The notes beneath the pieces are model-generated. The model was not told where the DNA came from. It was given only the letters and a program-made list of their open reading frames with translations, and did no database searches. DNA of 64,000 bases, taken from assembly GCA_965112155.1 (NCBI GenBank), contig OZ218101.1; one strand, given 5' to 3'. A program made the translations under genes and the position numbers. Positions 283 to 58,758 of this stretch are shown here, in pieces; position 1 is the stretch's first letter; the number at the start of each line of letters is the position of its first letter. The DNA comes from Podarcis liolepis. Its lineage: Eukaryota.

Positions 283-477
283 GTCTAGTCCAACCCCCTG
301 CAATGCAGGAATCTTGACTAAAGAAGCCATGGCCATTCAACCTCTGCTTAAAACCTGACCTAATGTTAGTCACATAATTCTCACCATATGTACTTTCATT
401 TTCCTCTGACTTGACTGCTTACAATCCCTTTTCCTTTCTTTCTCTGTGTATACCTGCAACACAGGATGACACTTTAT

Positions 478-555
478 ATATTTGTTGAAGTGGTCTGTAG
501 TCCATGAAAACTTCTGCTATAATAAATCGGTAGTCTCCACGGTGCCACAAAACCC
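478..555 (+). mobile_element. Degenerate copy of the hammerhead-type Penelope-like terminus
   Basis: TGTTGAAG-TGG.CTGTAGTCCA-TGAAAACTT…AATAAA…GGTGCCACAA; core mutated. Confidence 0.55.
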
Positions 556-1399
556 TTTCAGCCATCGAGACATCATTATCACTATTTTGCAGATATGAAC
601 CTGAAATCGAAAGTGTGTTTTTACTTACTACTGCATATAAACGGTCATAAGCTTCTTGTAGTCATTATTTGATGAAAGAAAATGTTAAGTCCATGTGAGT
701 TCATTTAGGCTGCATCCCATTCCCAATTAATGTTTAAATTCAGTTGCGCTAACTAGAATTAATTTATTTGAACTCAGTTGATGGGAATCCAATTGGACAA
801 TATGACTAGGTAAACAAAGGGTTTCATCGTCAATTTGTAGGCATCCTTCCAAGGCTCTGAATGTAAATGTGAAGGGCAAATATTTGTTGAATATTTGAAA
901 ACAGACTTGAGGAACCCCAGTATTGCTTAATATTGTAAATAGATTATTCAGGTACTGCAAACAGGTAATTGGCAACAGGTTGTTTTTGCTTTTTTTATAA
1001 AAAAAAATCCCCAGAAAGCAAAATCTGGATAAAATAGAGACAGGCATTTTGATACCAACTATGCCAAGTGGGGAAAAAAATATTGCAAGCGGAAACACCA
1101 ATCTCGCAATAAACACTCATCTGCAAGCAGCCAGAAAGGGGAAAAGTTGAGAACTGCCTTTGGGGGAAAACTTTGAATGAGTGATCTGATGGGAGATGAA
1201 CCAGGTAAGACCGCAGTTGTTGACATTTAAACCAAGAGGAAGTCAACAGTGCCAACAACTGCATAACACTGAAGGTGGATGAGGACAGACAGAGGAGAGG
1301 CCTTTTTTCAGCAGCTTATGGAAAAAGGGGCAGCCCATTTCAAGTGCCACACACAATACCACGCACAAATACGTTGCTGCTGCTAAGTGGCATTTCCCG

Positions 1400-2350: not shown

Positions 2351-3057
2351 CTTCTATACTTATCGGCTGGCACATGACCAGTTTCTCCCTAGGGCAGTTT
2401 CTCAGAACTGATTAAAGTCACTGGACTGCTCAAAGGACAGCTCCGCTTCTTATGTATGTCCCCTTTGTCTGCCTTCATTTTTCTGGCGCTTTTCATGTGG
2501 AAAATCCCCGTACCTTCCCATTTGAGGATGATGTATGATACCATTTACTAGGCTGCTCTTCTGGTTTTTTGTGAACAAACTCTTCCTACCTGTGCATGAA
2601 AACAAAGAGCTTTTGCTTTATGCTTATCCAGTGCCAAATGAGATGAAGTACTGGGTCTATCTAGCTGTGTGGCAAATAACTGCTGTGGGTTGGTTTAAAA
2701 CTGTTAAGAATTTTTTGGTTGTTTCTGTCATATGGAAGAACAGGAAAATGTAGTATGTTTGTCCTTAGCAAGGATAAGAGTTTCGAAACATTTTTTCCCA
2801 GAACATTGCGTAAAAGTAATTCTTGATTGTGTTGGAAAGCCACTTGAATGAAGGTGAAACTTTGTGGTATGTAAAGGACTACCCTGAGTGCTGCTTAACT
2901 TCAAAATTCTTCAAGACACAATGGTCTGACTTAAGTTTCTCTGGCCCTGTTTTCTGAGCCTGTAACTGAACAGCTCTGGTTTCCTTGTGTCCAAGTCATA
3001 GTTGTCCTAGGGTGAAGAAGCTTTGTAGATAAACTTCATTATGCCATAACTTCCAGT

Positions 3058-3169
3058 TACAGATAGTTTTCAGTGTATCTGAAGAAGTGTGCATGCACAC
3101 GAAAGCTCATACCAAGAACTAACTTAGTTGGTCTTTAAGGTGCTACTGGAAGGATTTTTTTTATTTTGA
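3058..3169 (+). mobile_element. 112-bp Penelope-like/retrozyme-type short insertion with a 14-bp TSD
   Basis: Flanked by identical CCATAACTTCCAGT at 3044-3057 and 3170-3183. Contains a hammerhead core and the …GTCTTTAAGGTGCTAC tail typical of reptile Penelope-like termini. Confidence 0.8.
3075..3112 (+). ncRNA. Minimal type I hammerhead ribozyme motif
   Basis: GTAT-CTGAAGA-A-GTGTGC AT GCACAC-GAAA-GC-TC-ATAC: stem I GTAT/ATAC, CUGANGA core, perfect stem II, GAAA, palindromic AGCT stem III, CUC cleavage triplet. Confidence 0.7.
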
Positions 3170-6100
3170 CCATAACTTCCAGTGAAGGATATTCTACTGT
3201 TTTCCTAGGCCACTTAGTACATTGCCTCACTGTACCTACAGTTTAAAAGTACTTCCTTATACTTAAGCTAACCTTGCCTGTCTGCAACTTAAATCTAAAA
3301 TTGGAGGGGAAATATTTTATGTCAACTTCTAAAAAAATCTCTGAAAAGATCAAGCTGCGGGGGTGGGGGAAGATCCCACTTTTAAATTGCACAAATCACT
3401 AATGCAGGGGGGAGGTGGGGTGTCAGGAGTCCGCCAAACCTATTGCTAAAGTTGTGTCATACAACCAGGAGTGGGGAAATTGCAGGTGCTTGTTTTCTTG
3501 AACACATGACACTTAGTTCCTGCTGCTTAAAGAATGTTTATGTGTGTCTGCAGTATTCATTTGTGGATAGAATTAGTAGGTATTTGTTTAGTACATTTTT
3601 ATTGCACCTTCATTTCATCATGGAACTTATGGTGCCTTACCATGGAGTTTCTAGGCACTGACCAAACCCAGACCTGCCTAGTTTCAGCAGGGTTGCCATA
3701 TCTTTCCCCAGCTGTACACATTTTTAAATTTTATCTTACGTATTTAGAAATTACCTCACAACCAGAAGCTATTGAAGTGGTGTGCAATAAGATAAAGTGA
3801 GTTAAAATACAAAAGATAGACTCCAAAAAGACTAAACCTAATTATACAACTGTACAATTAATATTCCATAAAATGACTGAGTCATTTGTGGGGAAAACTT
3901 AAACTAAAACATCTTCATCCCCCCCCCCCTAAATATCAAGATGTTAGGTCACTTTCAAATTTCAGCTGCTTACTGATTCCACTGGGCTGGAGCTGCAACA
4001 CCACAATGTGAGTAGGTCTGTGCCAGCCATTGTAATTTCACCAATACTTTTATTGGAAGCTCTGACTCGTGTAATTCAGTCACGAGGAGGGAAAAGGTAT
4101 CTAGAAGTAGGCACAAAAGCTATTATAGATAAAATAGATTTGAAAAAATGCTTAAGCCTTTGGGGAAGCTTTGAGGAACAGGTTCTGATGTGTAAAGGGC
4201 TGCATCAAGTTTTGCTTAATTTCACCAGAAGGACAAAAACCTTCTGGTTTTAGATTTTTATGGTCCTATTTTCCAAGTCAGTGATTAAATAGCTTTAAAT
4301 TCCTGTAATGTGTGCTGTTTGCTCTCCACGTCTAGTGTGTATTTATAGCTGGCCATGGATTTTGTGATATGGTACAGCTAGTATATTGGGCCTTAACTTT
4401 CTAGTCCCTCTAACTAGTGCTTCTTGAATAACTAGTGCTTCTTCAGTTTTTAAGTTCCTCTCGAATAGCTTGATCCAGACAAGAGGGAGATGGTGATGGT
4501 GAATGGGGCCTTGTGATCTGATGAGGTAAAGTTACATGCTGCTGATAGGATTTTCTTATCTATGAGATACCAGGCTTGCACCATGGGAGTCTGTAAATCC
4601 AGCTTGCTTCTTGAGGCATGACTGGACGGTTTCAATTAGTGCTATCAGATTTGCCTATCAAGAAAAACACATAAGGTATAAAACTGTACATGTATGACTT
4701 AAATTCCTCTTTAACTTCAGTGGGAACTTAGAAACCCAACAGACATCACTGTTTTAAATATTCCTATACACTCATGCGTGTTTCTAGCTTTATTTGGTAT
4801 TAAATCAGACATTCATAAATAATTGGACCAAAACCCCAGATCTCACTTTAAAAAGAGTTCAGCACACCTGATAGCTGGTATTCTGAATTTCAAAGTAATC
4901 CTAACCCCTAGCTTTCAGTAGTCAAACATACTTGTTTACATACTTTACAGAACATCTGAAGTACTTTGACTGCCTTTAAAGTAAATCTCATTTAACAAAT
5001 AATTTGGTGCTACAGAATATATTGTTATAAGCCGAAATTACAAAGCACCCTTGAAGTGATTTGTAAGTAGTTAGATTTTTTTTTTACCTGGGGAAAAATA
5101 ATATAGTGGGTTAAAATAATATAGTGGGTTAAATTCCCCCAACACTGAATTACTTTTCACACACCCCTCACCCCTGCAAAGTGCCTTTCTACTACATCTG
5201 GTTACTTGAACAAAGTTTGATAAGAGAAGCAATAAGGCTATAGACCTGAAACATGAACAGTCATACAGCCTAATCCTGTCAATGATTACTCAAGAAGTAC
5301 TACAATTTTAATTAAACTGAGGCTGCAGTGCTGTGATTTGGTACAGCTTTCTTTTGGGTAGACATTTATAGATTTGTGTTTTTATTTCCAGGTATATAAT
5401 CACTTACATTAAAAAGGCATAAGAACTAGACTATAAAGAATAAAATACTTGGAATAACATGAAAACCATTAGTTTCTTCAGTAAGGTAGAGTGCAATATT
5501 AAAAAAACTTCTACCCTTAAAGGTAAAAACATGAGGGTGGTTTACAAAACATTAAATGGCTAAATATATATGAAATGCAGGTAGTTCAAATTATGGCATT
5601 AAAGTAACATTACAAATCAAAATATGATATGATCTGGACTTTGGAGGGGACAGTCTAATATATGTAAATCTGTTGATGCTTATGCTAAAATTCACATATT
5701 TGCAGTGTGGCATGTGCTTTAAGTGAAATTGTAGAGCGGGAGTGGGGTTCCTATAGTCTTCCAGTTGTATCAGTCCCCCAAACCATGGTCAGTGGTAGCA
5801 ATGATGGGATCTGTAGTTGAGCAACTTCTGGAGGGCCAAAGTTTCCCCACCTGTTGTAGAGACTTGCTCGAACCTTTTTGGTTTATACTAAGAAGACACT
5901 GCTTCAGTTTGTGGTTCTGTCCTGCATGTCCAGTCTTCTAACATATCTGCCTTGCCCCGCACAAAAGCTCAGTATCTGTGACTGGACTCCCAAAGTATTC
6001 AGTTTTGCCTGTATAGTTGGCATTACTTATATTCCCAAAGTCAATTCTTAAAATAACTGCGCCCACATTTATTTTTTTTATAGAAAATGCACCTTTACAT

Positions 6101-7203: not shown

Positions 7204-7449
7204 ACTCCTGCCAACCTAGCAGTTCGAAAGCACGTCAAAGTGCAAGTAGATAAATAGGTACCGCTCCAGTGGGAAGGTAAACGGTGTTTCCGTGCGCTGC
7301 TCTGGTTCGCCAGAAGCGGCTGAGTCATGCTGGCCACATGACCCGGAAGCTGTACGCCGGCTCCCTCGGCCAGTAAAGCGAGATGGGCGCTGCAACCCCA
7401 GAGTCGGCCACAACTGGACATAACGGTCAGGGGTCCCTTTACCTTTACC
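7204..7449 (+). mobile_element. Sauria SINE, 5'-truncated
   Basis: CCTGCCAACCTAGCAGTTCGAAAGCACG…AGATAAATAGGTACCGCT…GGCCACATGACCCGGAAG, ending in an (ACCTTT)n tail. Confidence 0.9.
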
Positions 7450-7791
7450 ATTTGTGACTAAACTTTAGAAAGCAACTAAAGTGCCCTTGATTTAATCACT
7501 ACCATTTACAGCAGGCCTTTAACATATAATAGAACAGCTTTATCTGTCTACGTTGTTGCTTACAGTTATATTGCATTTTAATCTATCAGTTATTTTTGAA
7601 CTGATTTTAATGGATGAATTTATGAATATTGCTAGCCTTGCCTCTTTTGTGAGGAAGGGCCAGTTTTAATAAATAAGTAAATCCCATATCAAATAGATAT
7701 TTGTGTAACAAGTTGGAATTTCTTTGTATGAACTAGATCTGTTCTATTTTGCAGAACTGGATATAAGAAAATATCTGTTCTTGAAGCAACA

Positions 7792-8397
7792 ATGTCAGCA
7801 AAATCAACGCTCCTTAAAGTAATCCTTCTTGGTGATGGAGGAGTGGGCAAGAGTTCGATTATGAACAGATACGTCACTAACAAGTTTGACACAGAGCTGT
7901 TCCACACAATAGGTGTCGAGTTTTTAAATAAAGACCTGGAAGTGGATGGGCACTTTGTCACAATGCAGATATGGGACACGGCTGGTCAAGAACGTTTTAG
8001 GAGCTTGCGGACTCCTTTCTATAGAGGTTCTGACTGCTGCCTTCTCACTTTCAGCGTAGATGACTCTCAGAGCTTCCAGAATCTGGGCAATTGGAAGAAA
8101 GAATTCATTTACTATGCAGATGTCAAAGAGCCTGAAACGTTTCCTTTTGTGATACTGGGAAACAAAGTTGATATTAGCGAGAGGCAAGTGTCTACAGAAG
8201 AAGTCCAGAACTGGTGCAGGAACAACGGCAACCATCCTTACTTTGAAACCAGTGCAAAAGATGCCATTAATGTTGCTGCAGCCTTTGAGGAAGCTGTTCG
8301 AAGAGTTCTTGCCACTGATGATAGGTCAGATCACTTGATTCAAACTGATACAGTAAACCTTCACCGGAAGCCCAAGCCTAGCTCATCATGCTGTTGA
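7792..8397 (+). CDS. RAB9A: Ras-related protein Rab-9A (single coding exon, 201 aa)
   Basis: Motifs GDGGVGKS (P-loop), WDTAGQE, GNKVD, ETSAK and a C-terminal CC prenylation site. Near-identical to vertebrate RAB9A (…HRKPKPSSSCC). Acceptor ttttgcag ends at 7754. Synteny with TRAPPC2/OFD1. Confidence 0.98.
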   Translation: MSAKSTLLKVILLGDGGVGKSSIMNRYVTNKFDTELFHTIGVEFLNKDLEVDGHFVTMQIWDTAGQERFRSLRTPFYRGSDCCLLTFSVDDSQSFQNLGNWKKEFIYYADVKEPETFPFVILGNKVDISERQVSTEEVQNWCRNNGNHPYFETSAKDAINVAAAFEEAVRRVLATDDRSDHLIQTDTVNLHRKPKPSSSCC

Positions 8398-32789: not shown

Positions 32790-33031
32790 GTTTGAAAAAT
32801 GCTCTCCACTTTTGGGCTAACTCAATAAGATCAGGCTTTATTTAGAGCAATTTTATTTAAGCATTGGAGCAGATTGAAATAAAACACATGAAAAATGGCA
32901 TGTATTGTTTTTTTTTGTAAAAGTCTGGTATTTGATATTGTGATTTTTTAAATTTATAACATTTTTTATTATGGAGAAAGATCTTGACCCTATGTAGACA
33001 ATATCTGACAGTTCAGAAACAGAATCAGCAA

Positions 33032-33108
33032 AGATTCTTGTGGCATCTTAAAGAATAACAGTTTATTATGGGTACAATTTCATGGACCAAAGGCTCCTTA
33101 ATCAGAGC
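33032..33108 (-). mobile_element. Degenerate copy of the hammerhead-type Penelope-like terminus
   Basis: Reverse complement: CTGATTA…GTCCAT GAAA…ATAATAAACTGTTATTCTTTAAGATGCCACAAGA. Confidence 0.55.
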
Positions 33109-55938: not shown

Positions 55939-58320
55939 CTAAGCAGAAAAGAAAAGGGGGGGGGACACAAAGACAACATTATTTAAGTACAAGAACAAGT
56001 TATGAGAACAACATCATTTGGACTTCATGTGGTAAAACTAGTAAGAACAATTAGCAAAGTTACTTGTTCAAAGCTAATGGGTTGCACTTCCTACTTTCAT
56101 CAGATGACCTTCCTCTTTATGTCTGTCGCCTCAAAGTACAAGAGTGACAGCACCCCAGATTCTATGAAAATCAAAGGCTGCAGATGAAGCAAGCTTGTGC
56201 AGGATGCTTTAGAAAAGAGTATGTGTTCTCCACCGACACATCAAATTAACACTTCTATTTTAAGCACAGACAACAAAAATAAAACTTTGAAACTGAGTGC
56301 ACTATACTGTCCTTTCAGACATCTTTGCAGGGCAATGGGAGCCAGAAGCCCTCTAGTTAAAAGTCTCATCTGAGCCACAAATTCATTTGACAGCCTTAAG
56401 TAATCCACCCACACTCGGTAGCTTTATAAAACCTCAGGCCCCATTTGACAGCACACTGGTTCACCCAACATGGATGTTAAAAAGTTTACTGGTGTGTGAT
56501 GTACTCAAAAGGTTCTATATAAACGCAGCTGAAAAGCTTGTGCTTTCTCTGAAGAACATACAGATATGTTCAAATACAGAACATCCCAAGCTTGTTAATT
56601 GACATTAAGGATGAAGAATCTGTGGGCGACAGTTCCCATCACCTCAGGCCAGAATTGTATCTGGAGGGCAGCAGATTCTCCCTAGGATAGATGAAATGCT
56701 ACACACCTGCCGTGCTTAGAAGCACTACTGGTGCCCTTCCACTTTAGTAAATGCCTAGAAGACTGATTATGGAAAAGGGGTGGCCCTTCAGGATGATCTT
56801 GTTACTACAATTTCCACCATTCCTGACCAGACTTCTGGCTGAGGCTGATGGGAGCTGGTGTTCAAAAATAACCCGGGGTATGTGTCACAGGTTAGCCACT
56901 TGATTCAAAACCCAGCATGGGAACTAATTTCGCAGCGCAACACTACTCCAATGAAGGAATATGCCTTCAAGACTTCAGATGCAACTAAATTAGAATAATT
57001 CGCTCAAAGAGGAGTTTCAGATACTGGTGAGGTAAAAAGAAAAGAGTTAGGAGAAACAGTTCATATTGGTCTTAGGTGGTTAAAAATGGCAAATTCTACA
57101 GCATCACTGATACAGCAAGCATGCAAATGTATCATGAGAATAGAAAAGAAACATCCCAAAAGCCCATTTAGTTCCTTAAATTACATATGGGACACTGTTT
57201 CACTGGAGATTCTGTGCTGCAAACCCTCTGGATTTATTTACATAGTTTGTTTGTCCTCAGTATCTGGAAATATTTCTGTGTCCTCTAGGGATAGTTTTAT
57301 ATTCATTAGTAACATCAGAACTGCTAAGTCTAGTCTGCAGTGTAGTGAATGTTCAGTTTCAGATTCCACTTTGAGCTGCTAGCTTTGCACATGCACAAGG
57401 AAATTTGGGCATGGTGGAAGTTTAAAATGATTGAAACTCCCAGGTGCTTTCTGGAAAGACACAGACTGTGCCTCAACCACCCTGCTGATCTTATGAACTG
57501 GAGTTTCTAGAACAGTTGTTAACAACAAGGGGTGGCTGAAAAAGTACACAGCCTAAGATAAAAGGAATTGGCTTTGAACTTGGAAAACTTGCGAGTCTGC
57601 TTCTCCAAATGCTCACAGTCACTCATTTGTTCAAGAGAAGAGGAAGCCATTTTGCTGATCGCCATACTAATAAACTATCTAGTTGCCCAAGACACCACTT
57701 AACCAAGTTCTTGTCCTAGAACTGCTATGCTATTCTCACTAGAGATGATGCCAGAATACATAGTCCCAAGCATTGCATTTTGAAATAGGCTGGCTTGGAA
57801 CAGTTGCTTCAAATGCAAGGTAAGCACTACCTGTTCCACTTACGTGTTTGCCTCCAGCTCCCATCAGGAATCCAGGGCAACCAAGGTGCTAGGTGCTGAC
57901 AAGAGAGAAACATTCCTCTCTGTGCCAGACCAGCAGCGCCAATGTGAATGGGTATTGGTGGGAGGGGGCAGTCTTGTGCACAAAGGTAGTGTTATGTGGC
58001 GGGGGGTTGGAGAATCAGAGTATTGGGAAAAATCTGCTTCATGTACCAAAGTCTCAGATTAAATGCAGATTGGTTTGGAATAAGCCCAGCACCATCCTGA
58101 GTCTATTTTATTTTTAAAAATTTAAAAGTTGGCTTAGCCAAGCCAATTTAAGGAGAACTGGGGAGGCAAGAGATGCACTCATAAGTACAACTCTGATGTA
58201 TATATTATTTGCTACCCACCAAAAGCAAACATTACATGATGTCTTTGTACAGGTACACAGAAATGATTATAGTTGGGCACATCCATAGAGCAATAAAGTC
58301 CATGCAGCAGTTAAAGAAAA

Positions 58321-58396
58321 AGTCTCGTAGCACCTTAAAAAGCTAACAAATGTATTGTGGCATAGGTTTTCATGGTCTGCTTCATCAGATGCTTGA
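58321..58396 (-). mobile_element. Degenerate copy of the hammerhead-type Penelope-like terminus
   Basis: Reverse complement: GCAT CTGATGA AGCAGACCAT GAAA ACCT ATGC…TTTAAGGTGCTACGAGAC; stem II disrupted. Confidence 0.6.
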
Positions 58397-58758
58397 AGTG
58401 TCATCTTAAATTGGCAAGCATATATGCACATTGGGAGAGAGATGTCAGAGGAGGAAGGAACAGTCAGGTTCCATTCCTTTCCCCTTTTTGCATGGGTCTC
58501 CTGTCCTCAGACCACTCTGTTTCAAGCGTGGTATACAAATGTATAAAAGAAAACTGTTTATTATGTAGCTTTTTCGTGTGAAAAATGTTTTTAGAAGTAA
58601 AATATTTTGGGGGCTTTAAAATAGATAAATAAGAGTGTCTGTAACAAAATAGCTATTATGGGATGGCATAACACAAAACTAGAGAGACAGTCACCCCTGA
58701 CAACCTTATGCTTACAGTGGGAAGTCAGCTTTGTCCTGGTACCCATTGTGCAGATTTT

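Follow-up and report, generated by a model that had tools for sequence, protein, structure and literature searches.

The 112-bp insert upstream of a Ras-family coding exon in the window, the 64-kb stretch of Podarcis liolepis DNA analyzed here, is very probably a short piece of an abundant Neptune-type Penelope-like retrotransposon that was made by two-site priming from both cut DNA ends, carries a hammerhead ribozyme predicted to misfold, and likely has no effect on RAB9A. The insert is an ordinary, recent copy, one of ~10^4: a dead-end stub from an element of known type. It had been described in the initial annotation as a tiny non-autonomous element; instead, the unit is a by-product that an autonomous element left behind, built of two head-to-head parts, with its first 9 nt on the opposite strand. 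Feature coordinates are collected in Table 1. Positions in the parent element are given relative to core position C3 of the hammerhead (window 3079 = 0).

Table 1 Features of the insert and its surroundings (window positions).
Feature	Position	Strand	Remark
Left target-site duplication copy	3044..3057	+	Last 7 nt (3051-3057) complementary to element RNA just past tail site B (microhomology)
Inverted tail stub, 9 nt	3058..3066	-	Parent +114..+122, inside first ORF codons; putative priming product at site B
Extra T at arm junction	3067	.	Absent from parent copies L042 and L221
Competing hairpin	3067..3085	+	Upstream bases predicted to pair with catalytic core and block helix I (MFE of 3067-3125; P of helix I 0.02)
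pLTR piece, 102 nt	3068..3169	+	Parent -11..+90; ends at site A, three bases before start codon
Equivalent of main 5'-end sites (-6, -4)	3073..3075	+	Putative transcript start; parent's TATA-like box absent here
Minimal type I hammerhead	3075..3112	+	CUC triplet, predicted cut after 3108
Helix I, 4 bp	3075-3078/3109-3112	+	Read from sequence
CUGAAGA core box	3079-3085	+	
Extra (bulged) A	3086	+	
Palindromic stem-loop II	3087-3100	+	
GAA	3101-3103	+	
AGCU, palindromic loop-less helix III	3104-3107	+	
C17	3108	+	
Right target-site duplication copy	3170..3183	+	
Host coding exon, Rab/Ras-family GTPase	7792..8394	+	Same strand as hammerhead

The 14-bp direct repeat reported to bracket the 112-bp unit was present and is a true target-site duplication, as contigs from four of the eight runs compared at the site bypass the unit, running from 3043 or 3001 to 3170. 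In the X6 contig 3043 is joined to 3170, with 126 positions skipped and 14 letters fitting both sides, and in the X14 contig 3001 is joined to 3170 with 30 flank letters between. The X15 and X17 contigs are continuous across 3043/3170 and the unit is absent. These four empty-site runs represent organisms D and E, in which the duplicated sequence is single-copy, and they bear out the earlier claim of a recent insertion with an empty allele in relatives. The left filled junction was found in X2 (organism B) and X5 (organism C), with 37–38 nt of the insert covered; X4 (organism A) contains 16 nt of the right filled junction, too short to count as a bridge, and X21 (raw reads) was without cover of the unique flanks. 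Since the flanks of organisms D and E diverge from the window by ~2.5% and those of organism C by 1.4%, the insertion, though recent, predates a single species label. The filled and empty site also provides a clean clade marker.

The unit sits between a CpG-rich region (~1400–2400) and the coding exon, whose protein was identified by the analysis only as “Ras family”; the name RAB9A is that of the initial annotation and fits the protein. An acceptor-like site of the coding exon ends at 7754, and two donor-like sites are located upstream at 1744 and 1987. Of the proposed placement in sense orientation within RAB9A intron 1, the orientation and the position upstream of the coding exon held, while the intron number was not confirmed, with two donor-like sites and no splice joint among the joints listed for the runs compared. 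Two runs guessed to be RNA, of low depth and with the empty allele, also gave no splice joint among the listed rows.

The insert is arranged as duplication, inverted tail stub, pLTR piece and duplication, with the arms head-to-head. The pLTR piece differs at one position in 102 nt from parent copy L042. Read on the minus strand, 3051–3066 agrees with the parent over 16 nt spanning tail site B, made up of 9 nt of insert and 7 nt of target. The same build was observed at locus L152, with an 18-nt stub, and at L011, with the whole tail. Because the insert is devoid of the TATA-like box, the start codon and the ORF-start region, this copy is likely a dead end. Insertions of EN+ Penelope-like elements (PLEs) described previously (PMC3846280; 10.1101/2021.04.23.441226; both in part) have, as here, head-to-head arms and a tail at one end only, consisting of an inverted 5'-truncated copy and a one-sided 30–40 bp tail. 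They also share a pLTR reaching the ORF start, TATA/initiator-like motifs and duplications of ~10 bp. Unlike these insertions, the tail-bearing arm here is 9 nt, and the duplications are 12–14 bp.

The 38-nt ribozyme has 9,879 exact copies in the genome, compared to none for the reversed control, and in the insert it lies in the pLTR of a PLE. In long copies, RT and GIY-YIG coding sequence ends ~185 nt upstream of the hammerhead, and a copy extending past the tail reveals an ORF start at +93, so that the ATG lies 63 nt past the ribozyme cut site. The ORF-start motif has 114 exact copies in the genome. An intact 910-aa ORF beginning at this ATG, between hammerhead-bearing pLTRs, was found in 5 of 20 fetched regions; the intact elements have a 3,008-bp period, are tandem in L220 and L221, and are 99.5–99.9% alike. 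The predicted protein contains RVT_1 (E 9e-12) and GIY-YIG (E 2e-5) domains, DKG and YIDD motifs, and a CX4CxxC linker between RT and EN at residue 770. A CX2-5CxxC zinc-finger linker at this place is the mark of the Neptune and Nematis clades. The closest named proteins are unnamed turtle RTs with 60–70% identity. pLTRs, partial tandems, inverted copies, a one-sided tail and target-site duplications are all displayed by the parent. Judged by its sequence, the parent is an autonomous Neptune-type EN+ PLE, with the clade taken from the linker motif rather than from an RT tree. The family has been recently active, with intact tandem masters.

The mode of insertion was examined in 160 distinct insertions called from loci L001–L202, a set that mixes unbiased loci with loci picked by pattern. 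A duplication of 10–17 bp was present in 116, with a mode of 12–13 bp (37 of 12, 38 of 13 and 16 of 14 bp); the other 44 were left out of the end analysis. Resolvable 3' ends fell at two sites, referred to as A (~+79..+90; 89 ends) and B (~+118..+130; 67 ends). Among 47 insertions in which two 3' ends were resolvable, 44 paired A with B, two were A-A and one was B-B (p 1e-10 compared to random pairing). Overlap of at least 3 nt between target and element RNA was observed for 21 of the 89 ends at site A and 23 of the 67 at site B, compared to 5–6% under a two-sided null, and the mean overlap was 1.65 and 1.91 nt compared to 0.70 and 0.67 nt under the same null; 39 of the 156 ends had no overlap. 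Priming at two sites is, from these genomic end points, the likely mode. A testable statement on this poorly understood class of retroelements is that the RT start site used at one DNA end differs from that used at the other in nearly every insertion of the family.

Applied to the insert in the window, two-site priming would begin with the element protein cutting both DNA strands 14 bases apart. The top-strand end would then anneal at site B to 7 complementary bases of the RNA and be extended by 9 nt, and the bottom-strand end would prime at site A and be extended by ~100 nt to near the RNA 5' end. The last step would join the two cDNAs through a G common to both, with an additional T. A related reaction has been described in vitro for the Poseidon element PAc of Anolis carolinensis (Frangieh et al. 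2024, PMC11167929, in part), in which, as in the present family, both strands are cut and extended, two adjacent internal RT starts bound the tail, and the hammerhead is near the ORF start. The two systems differ in that the linker here is of the Neptune/Nematis CX4CxxC type and the ATG lies downstream of the cut site, while the ATG of PAc is inside the ribozyme. No homology to the cut DNA was reported for initiation in the available part of that study, whereas short homology is enriched here.

Instead of priming from both DNA ends, the first cDNA, or an antisense template, could fold back and prime itself to give the two arms. Fold-back has been put forward for PLE repeats in head-to-head arrangement whose junctions are palindromic (PMC3846280, in part), and many junctions here do lie in palindromes or helix arms, with a cDNA that can form a hairpin at the core. 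The 5'-end pile-up described below also occurs mostly in two-armed copies, in 37 of 46 compared to 6 of 41 others, of which 28 are censored. Fold-back cannot give the RAB9A-intron copy, however, because its arms (+114..+122 and -11..+90) do not overlap and neither copies the other; non-overlapping arms were also found at L152, L011, L077 and L079. Furthermore, microhomology between target and RNA is present at both ends, and the A/B pairing is left unexplained by fold-back alone. We consider fold-back to be rather improbable as the source of the two arms. In most two-armed copies of the family the arms overlap, unlike in L1 twin priming, and for these overlapping copies one RNA used twice, two RNAs and fold-back are indistinguishable.

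Spread of the 112-bp unit as an independent ribozyme element, retrozyme- or SINE-like and transcribed and re-inserted as such, is highly improbable. Short copies flanked by duplications of their own are frequent (28 of the 116 duplicated insertions are <170 bp), and non-LTR retrozymes, which are described as derivatives of PLE pLTRs (10.64898/2026.07.22.740005, in part), resemble the unit in being non-coding with a type I hammerhead and in occurring as many monomers (also PMC7229834, in part). Nevertheless, none of 42 other sampled matches covers the first bases of the unit, no sampled copy shares its ends and internal junction, and the short copies vary in length (58–156 bp) and in junction. 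In retrozymes the units are in tandem and two or more of them contain a complete hammerhead (10.64898/2026.07.22.740005, in part); the insert is not tandem and has a single hammerhead, which places it outside this definition, and it shows no indication of spreading independently. It also lacks the TATA-like box and the ORF start, and the anole element needs the first 172 nt of its ORF as template (PMC11167929, in part). Spread as an independent element is thus largely refuted already. Every defining feature tested fits PLE minimal hammerheads and EN+ PLE insertions, and the retrozyme comparison fails.

The Penelope-type minimal type I hammerhead of the initial annotation was confirmed. CUGANGA and GAAA boxes, an NUH triplet and a short helix I are all present at 3075–3112, and a strict hammerhead descriptor matched this site alone in the 64-kb window, with no match in 100 shuffles. 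Rfam hammerhead models, suggested there as a check, gave no hammerhead match at E ≤ 10 in 2600–3700, and folding of the whole 112 nt was no better than that of shuffles (z -0.44). A3086, previously noted as a departure from the core, is the unpaired base between 9 and 10.1, while G3087-C3100 corresponds to the G10.1-C11.1 pair and G3105-C3106 to a palindromic 15.2-16.2; all three are published traits of PLE hammerheads, and the extra nucleotide is a hallmark of them (PMC4209133, in part). The hammerheads from the pLTRs of PLEs (Cervera and De la Pena 2014, PMC4209133, in part) also share the core boxes, the 4-bp helix I, thousands of dispersed single copies, opposite-strand pairs, and an occurrence in reptiles and Neptune elements. 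Helix II is 5 bp with a self-complementary tetraloop here compared to 7–8 bp in the schistosome families, and the copies here are highly uniform, which the available part of that study reports only for D. virilis.

Lack of covariation among genomic copies had been offered as a refutation of the ribozyme, a test that turned out to be ill-posed. Within the young family, none of 25 changes at stem II position 2 is compensated, and such uncompensated changes are decay. Between families, in a comparison of 19 loci, helix I is GCAT/ATGC in L211 and L212 compared to GTAT/ATAC, a pair swapped on both sides in an older family, and stem II differs yet pairs in L212, L217 and L219; most old copies are decayed.

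Folding was assessed by equilibrium prediction. In isolation the hammerhead is predicted to form helix I (P 0.7), but with 8 more upstream bases, which pair with the core, its probability falls to 0.02, and in five intron contexts of 90–250 nt it is 0.00. The monomer cannot fold helix III because AGCU has no loop, in agreement with the initial annotation that efficient cleavage by such hammerheads generally needs a dimer. The palindromic stem II was considered as an aid to dimerization and rejected, as it favors a duplex that is not the active fold: a one-junction dimer is predicted at -13.0 kcal/mol, compared to 2 × -6.8 kcal/mol for two monomers and -28.0 kcal/mol for the 14-bp palindrome duplex.

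Cleavage of RAB9A pre-mRNA, which had been raised as a possible consequence of the insertion, is disfavored by these predictions; cutting is unlikely, because in the intron helix I is not expected to form, and by the same modeling a host effect of this copy is likely to be lacking. A hammerhead active enough to cut the pre-mRNA and alter its level, through trans dimers with other copies or through help from a protein, would have an intact core in sense to the gene, thousands of identical partners, and a presence under three organism labels in its favor. The anole ribozyme does cut when the protein of its element is added (PMC11167929, in part), and retrozymes are under-represented in frog introns (10.64898/2026.07.22.740005, in part). 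However, in addition to the predicted block of helix I and a dimer no better than two monomers and far from the duplex, minimal PLE hammerheads are published to cleave not at all as monomers and at low levels as dimers (PMC4209133, in part), the protein-binding ORF start is missing from this copy, and the available part of the anole study reports no RNA-seq ends at the cut site (PMC11167929). We judge such cutting to be extremely doubtful.

The 5' edge of family copies was analyzed at unbiased loci L043–L112, taken in order along contig C1. At these loci 43 of 87 motif-bearing arms end at -4..-8 and 1 of 44 arms ends at -9..-13, where ends further 3' were excluded by selection; owing to an indel in the reference copy, the 5'-end histogram is censored from -101 outward. 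Overall, 5' ends are piled up ~80-fold at the front edge of the ribozyme, often with an extra G. Genome-wide counts of exact 5' ends, which are lower bounds as each requires two non-parent bases upstream, were 26 at -20, 413 at -7, 1,655 at -6, 2,107 at -4, 68 at the cut site (+30) and 22 at +32. Starts at -4 were sampled from the first 100 listed matches, giving 67 arms in 60 regions (58 resolved). G accounted for 9 of 11 one-base fillers (p 0.0014) and was the last base of 33 of the 47 fillers, compared to 28% in the rest of the fillers, under a search pattern that bars T at -5 and G at -6 and with many fillers being core patches ending in G. Copying of the cap as an extra G is established for retrotransposon and cDNA ends. 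The pile-up likely marks a capped transcript start.

The same pile-up could come from RT stalling at a hairpin or from splicing to the AG at -7/-6, which is an unlikely but appreciable alternative. The site resembles a pyrimidine tract plus CAG, a hairpin spans the 5' edge, the fillers are often core patches as noted above, and an intron of D. virilis ends at helix I (PMC4209133, in part). Against this, no shared upstream exon was found at the 5'-end hot spot in 30 loci at -6 or in 67 arms at -4, the fillers are enriched in G, and the parent has a TATA-like box 30–33 nt upstream of the 5'-end sites; a TATA box plus initiator has been described in pLTRs (PMC3846280, in part). The first 30 loci seemed to share a start at TTTTCAG, but this was due to query bias and is absent from unbiased loci. 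Starts at the cut site, considered as proof of in vivo cleavage, were in small excess over the controls (68 compared to 22 and 26), an excess that is confounded because 15 of 30 fetched matches were joins through helix I homology or the AT palindrome. The stubs of the family make testable where the RNA starts and whether cut RNA serves, at most rarely, as a template.

Transcripts of the parent that begin at -4..-9 are predicted to form helix I with P 0.6–0.8, compared to ≤0.1 for those that begin at least 40 nt upstream; a start at -12 gives 0.76 or 0.08 depending on the 3' end. This predicted start-site-dependent folding gives a simple test of the role of PLE hammerheads. Building on a capped start, we tentatively propose a model in which we have somewhat less than even confidence: the element mRNA would be capped at the first base of the hammerhead, RT primed 95–130 nt downstream would run off at the cap and copy the extra G, and the ribozyme would act as a start-site switch, able to fold in element RNA initiated at the promoter but held inactive by upstream sequence in read-through RNA. 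If true, the switch would explain how ten thousand intact copies are tolerated, and the strict A/B priming would be a sign of an asymmetric RT dimer. For PLEs, searches of part of the literature gave no paper describing twin priming, strong-stop copies or a cap-derived G. The copy in the window reaches -11, outside the 5'-end peak, and may derive from a longer RNA or contain a templated patch at its junction.

At seven perfect palindromes, AT was shared and the hammerhead cut site formed the end of both arms, that is, of the two head-to-head pieces of one insertion. These joins could reflect either templates that had been cleaved by the ribozyme or plain palindrome joins. Among the 60 regions with arms starting at -4 (L240-L299; positions counted from hammerhead C3), the fillers between the arms commonly consisted of ribozyme-core patches, repeated in either orientation and up to ~50 nt long, which suggests, from the junction sequences, repeated re-priming at the RNA 5' end.

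Tandem full-length copies of the Penelope-like element (PLE) were located at two loci. L221 contains two successive 910-aa ORFs, both intact, and comparison with named proteins placed turtle proteins nearest to its ORF (60-70% identity), followed by crinoid and hemichordate relatives (~51%). A stub like the window insert was also observed at L021:1501-1595; it sits inside a long copy from its own family and breaks that copy's RT frame. The frame at L027:2334-2801 (-), with a decayed copy nearby, resembles the endonuclease end of a different PLE family.

The window additionally holds three decayed pLTR pieces of an older hammerhead-bearing family, matching its loci at 70-83%; the piece at 58388 still has its helix I and first core box.

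Coordinates of element copies, cut-site palindromes and older-family pieces
Feature	Location	Strand	Basis
Tandem full-length PLE copies, L220	G000:C1:101120500-101129500		
Tandem full-length PLE copies, L221	C4:88611800-88619000		
Cut-site palindrome pairs	L113/114, L117/118, L131/132, L135/136 and three further pairs		
Decayed older-family pLTR piece	window 374-558		match to L200, L211, L212
Decayed older-family pLTR piece	window 33026-33106		match to L200, L211, L212
Decayed older-family pLTR piece	window 58314-58416	-	match to L200, L211, L212

Within the host intron, the insert carried in a weak acceptor-like pyrimidine run with CAG (3067-3073, +), sense to the gene. The coding exon is preceded, at a distance of 340 nt, by a far more abundant short repeat (7205-7449).
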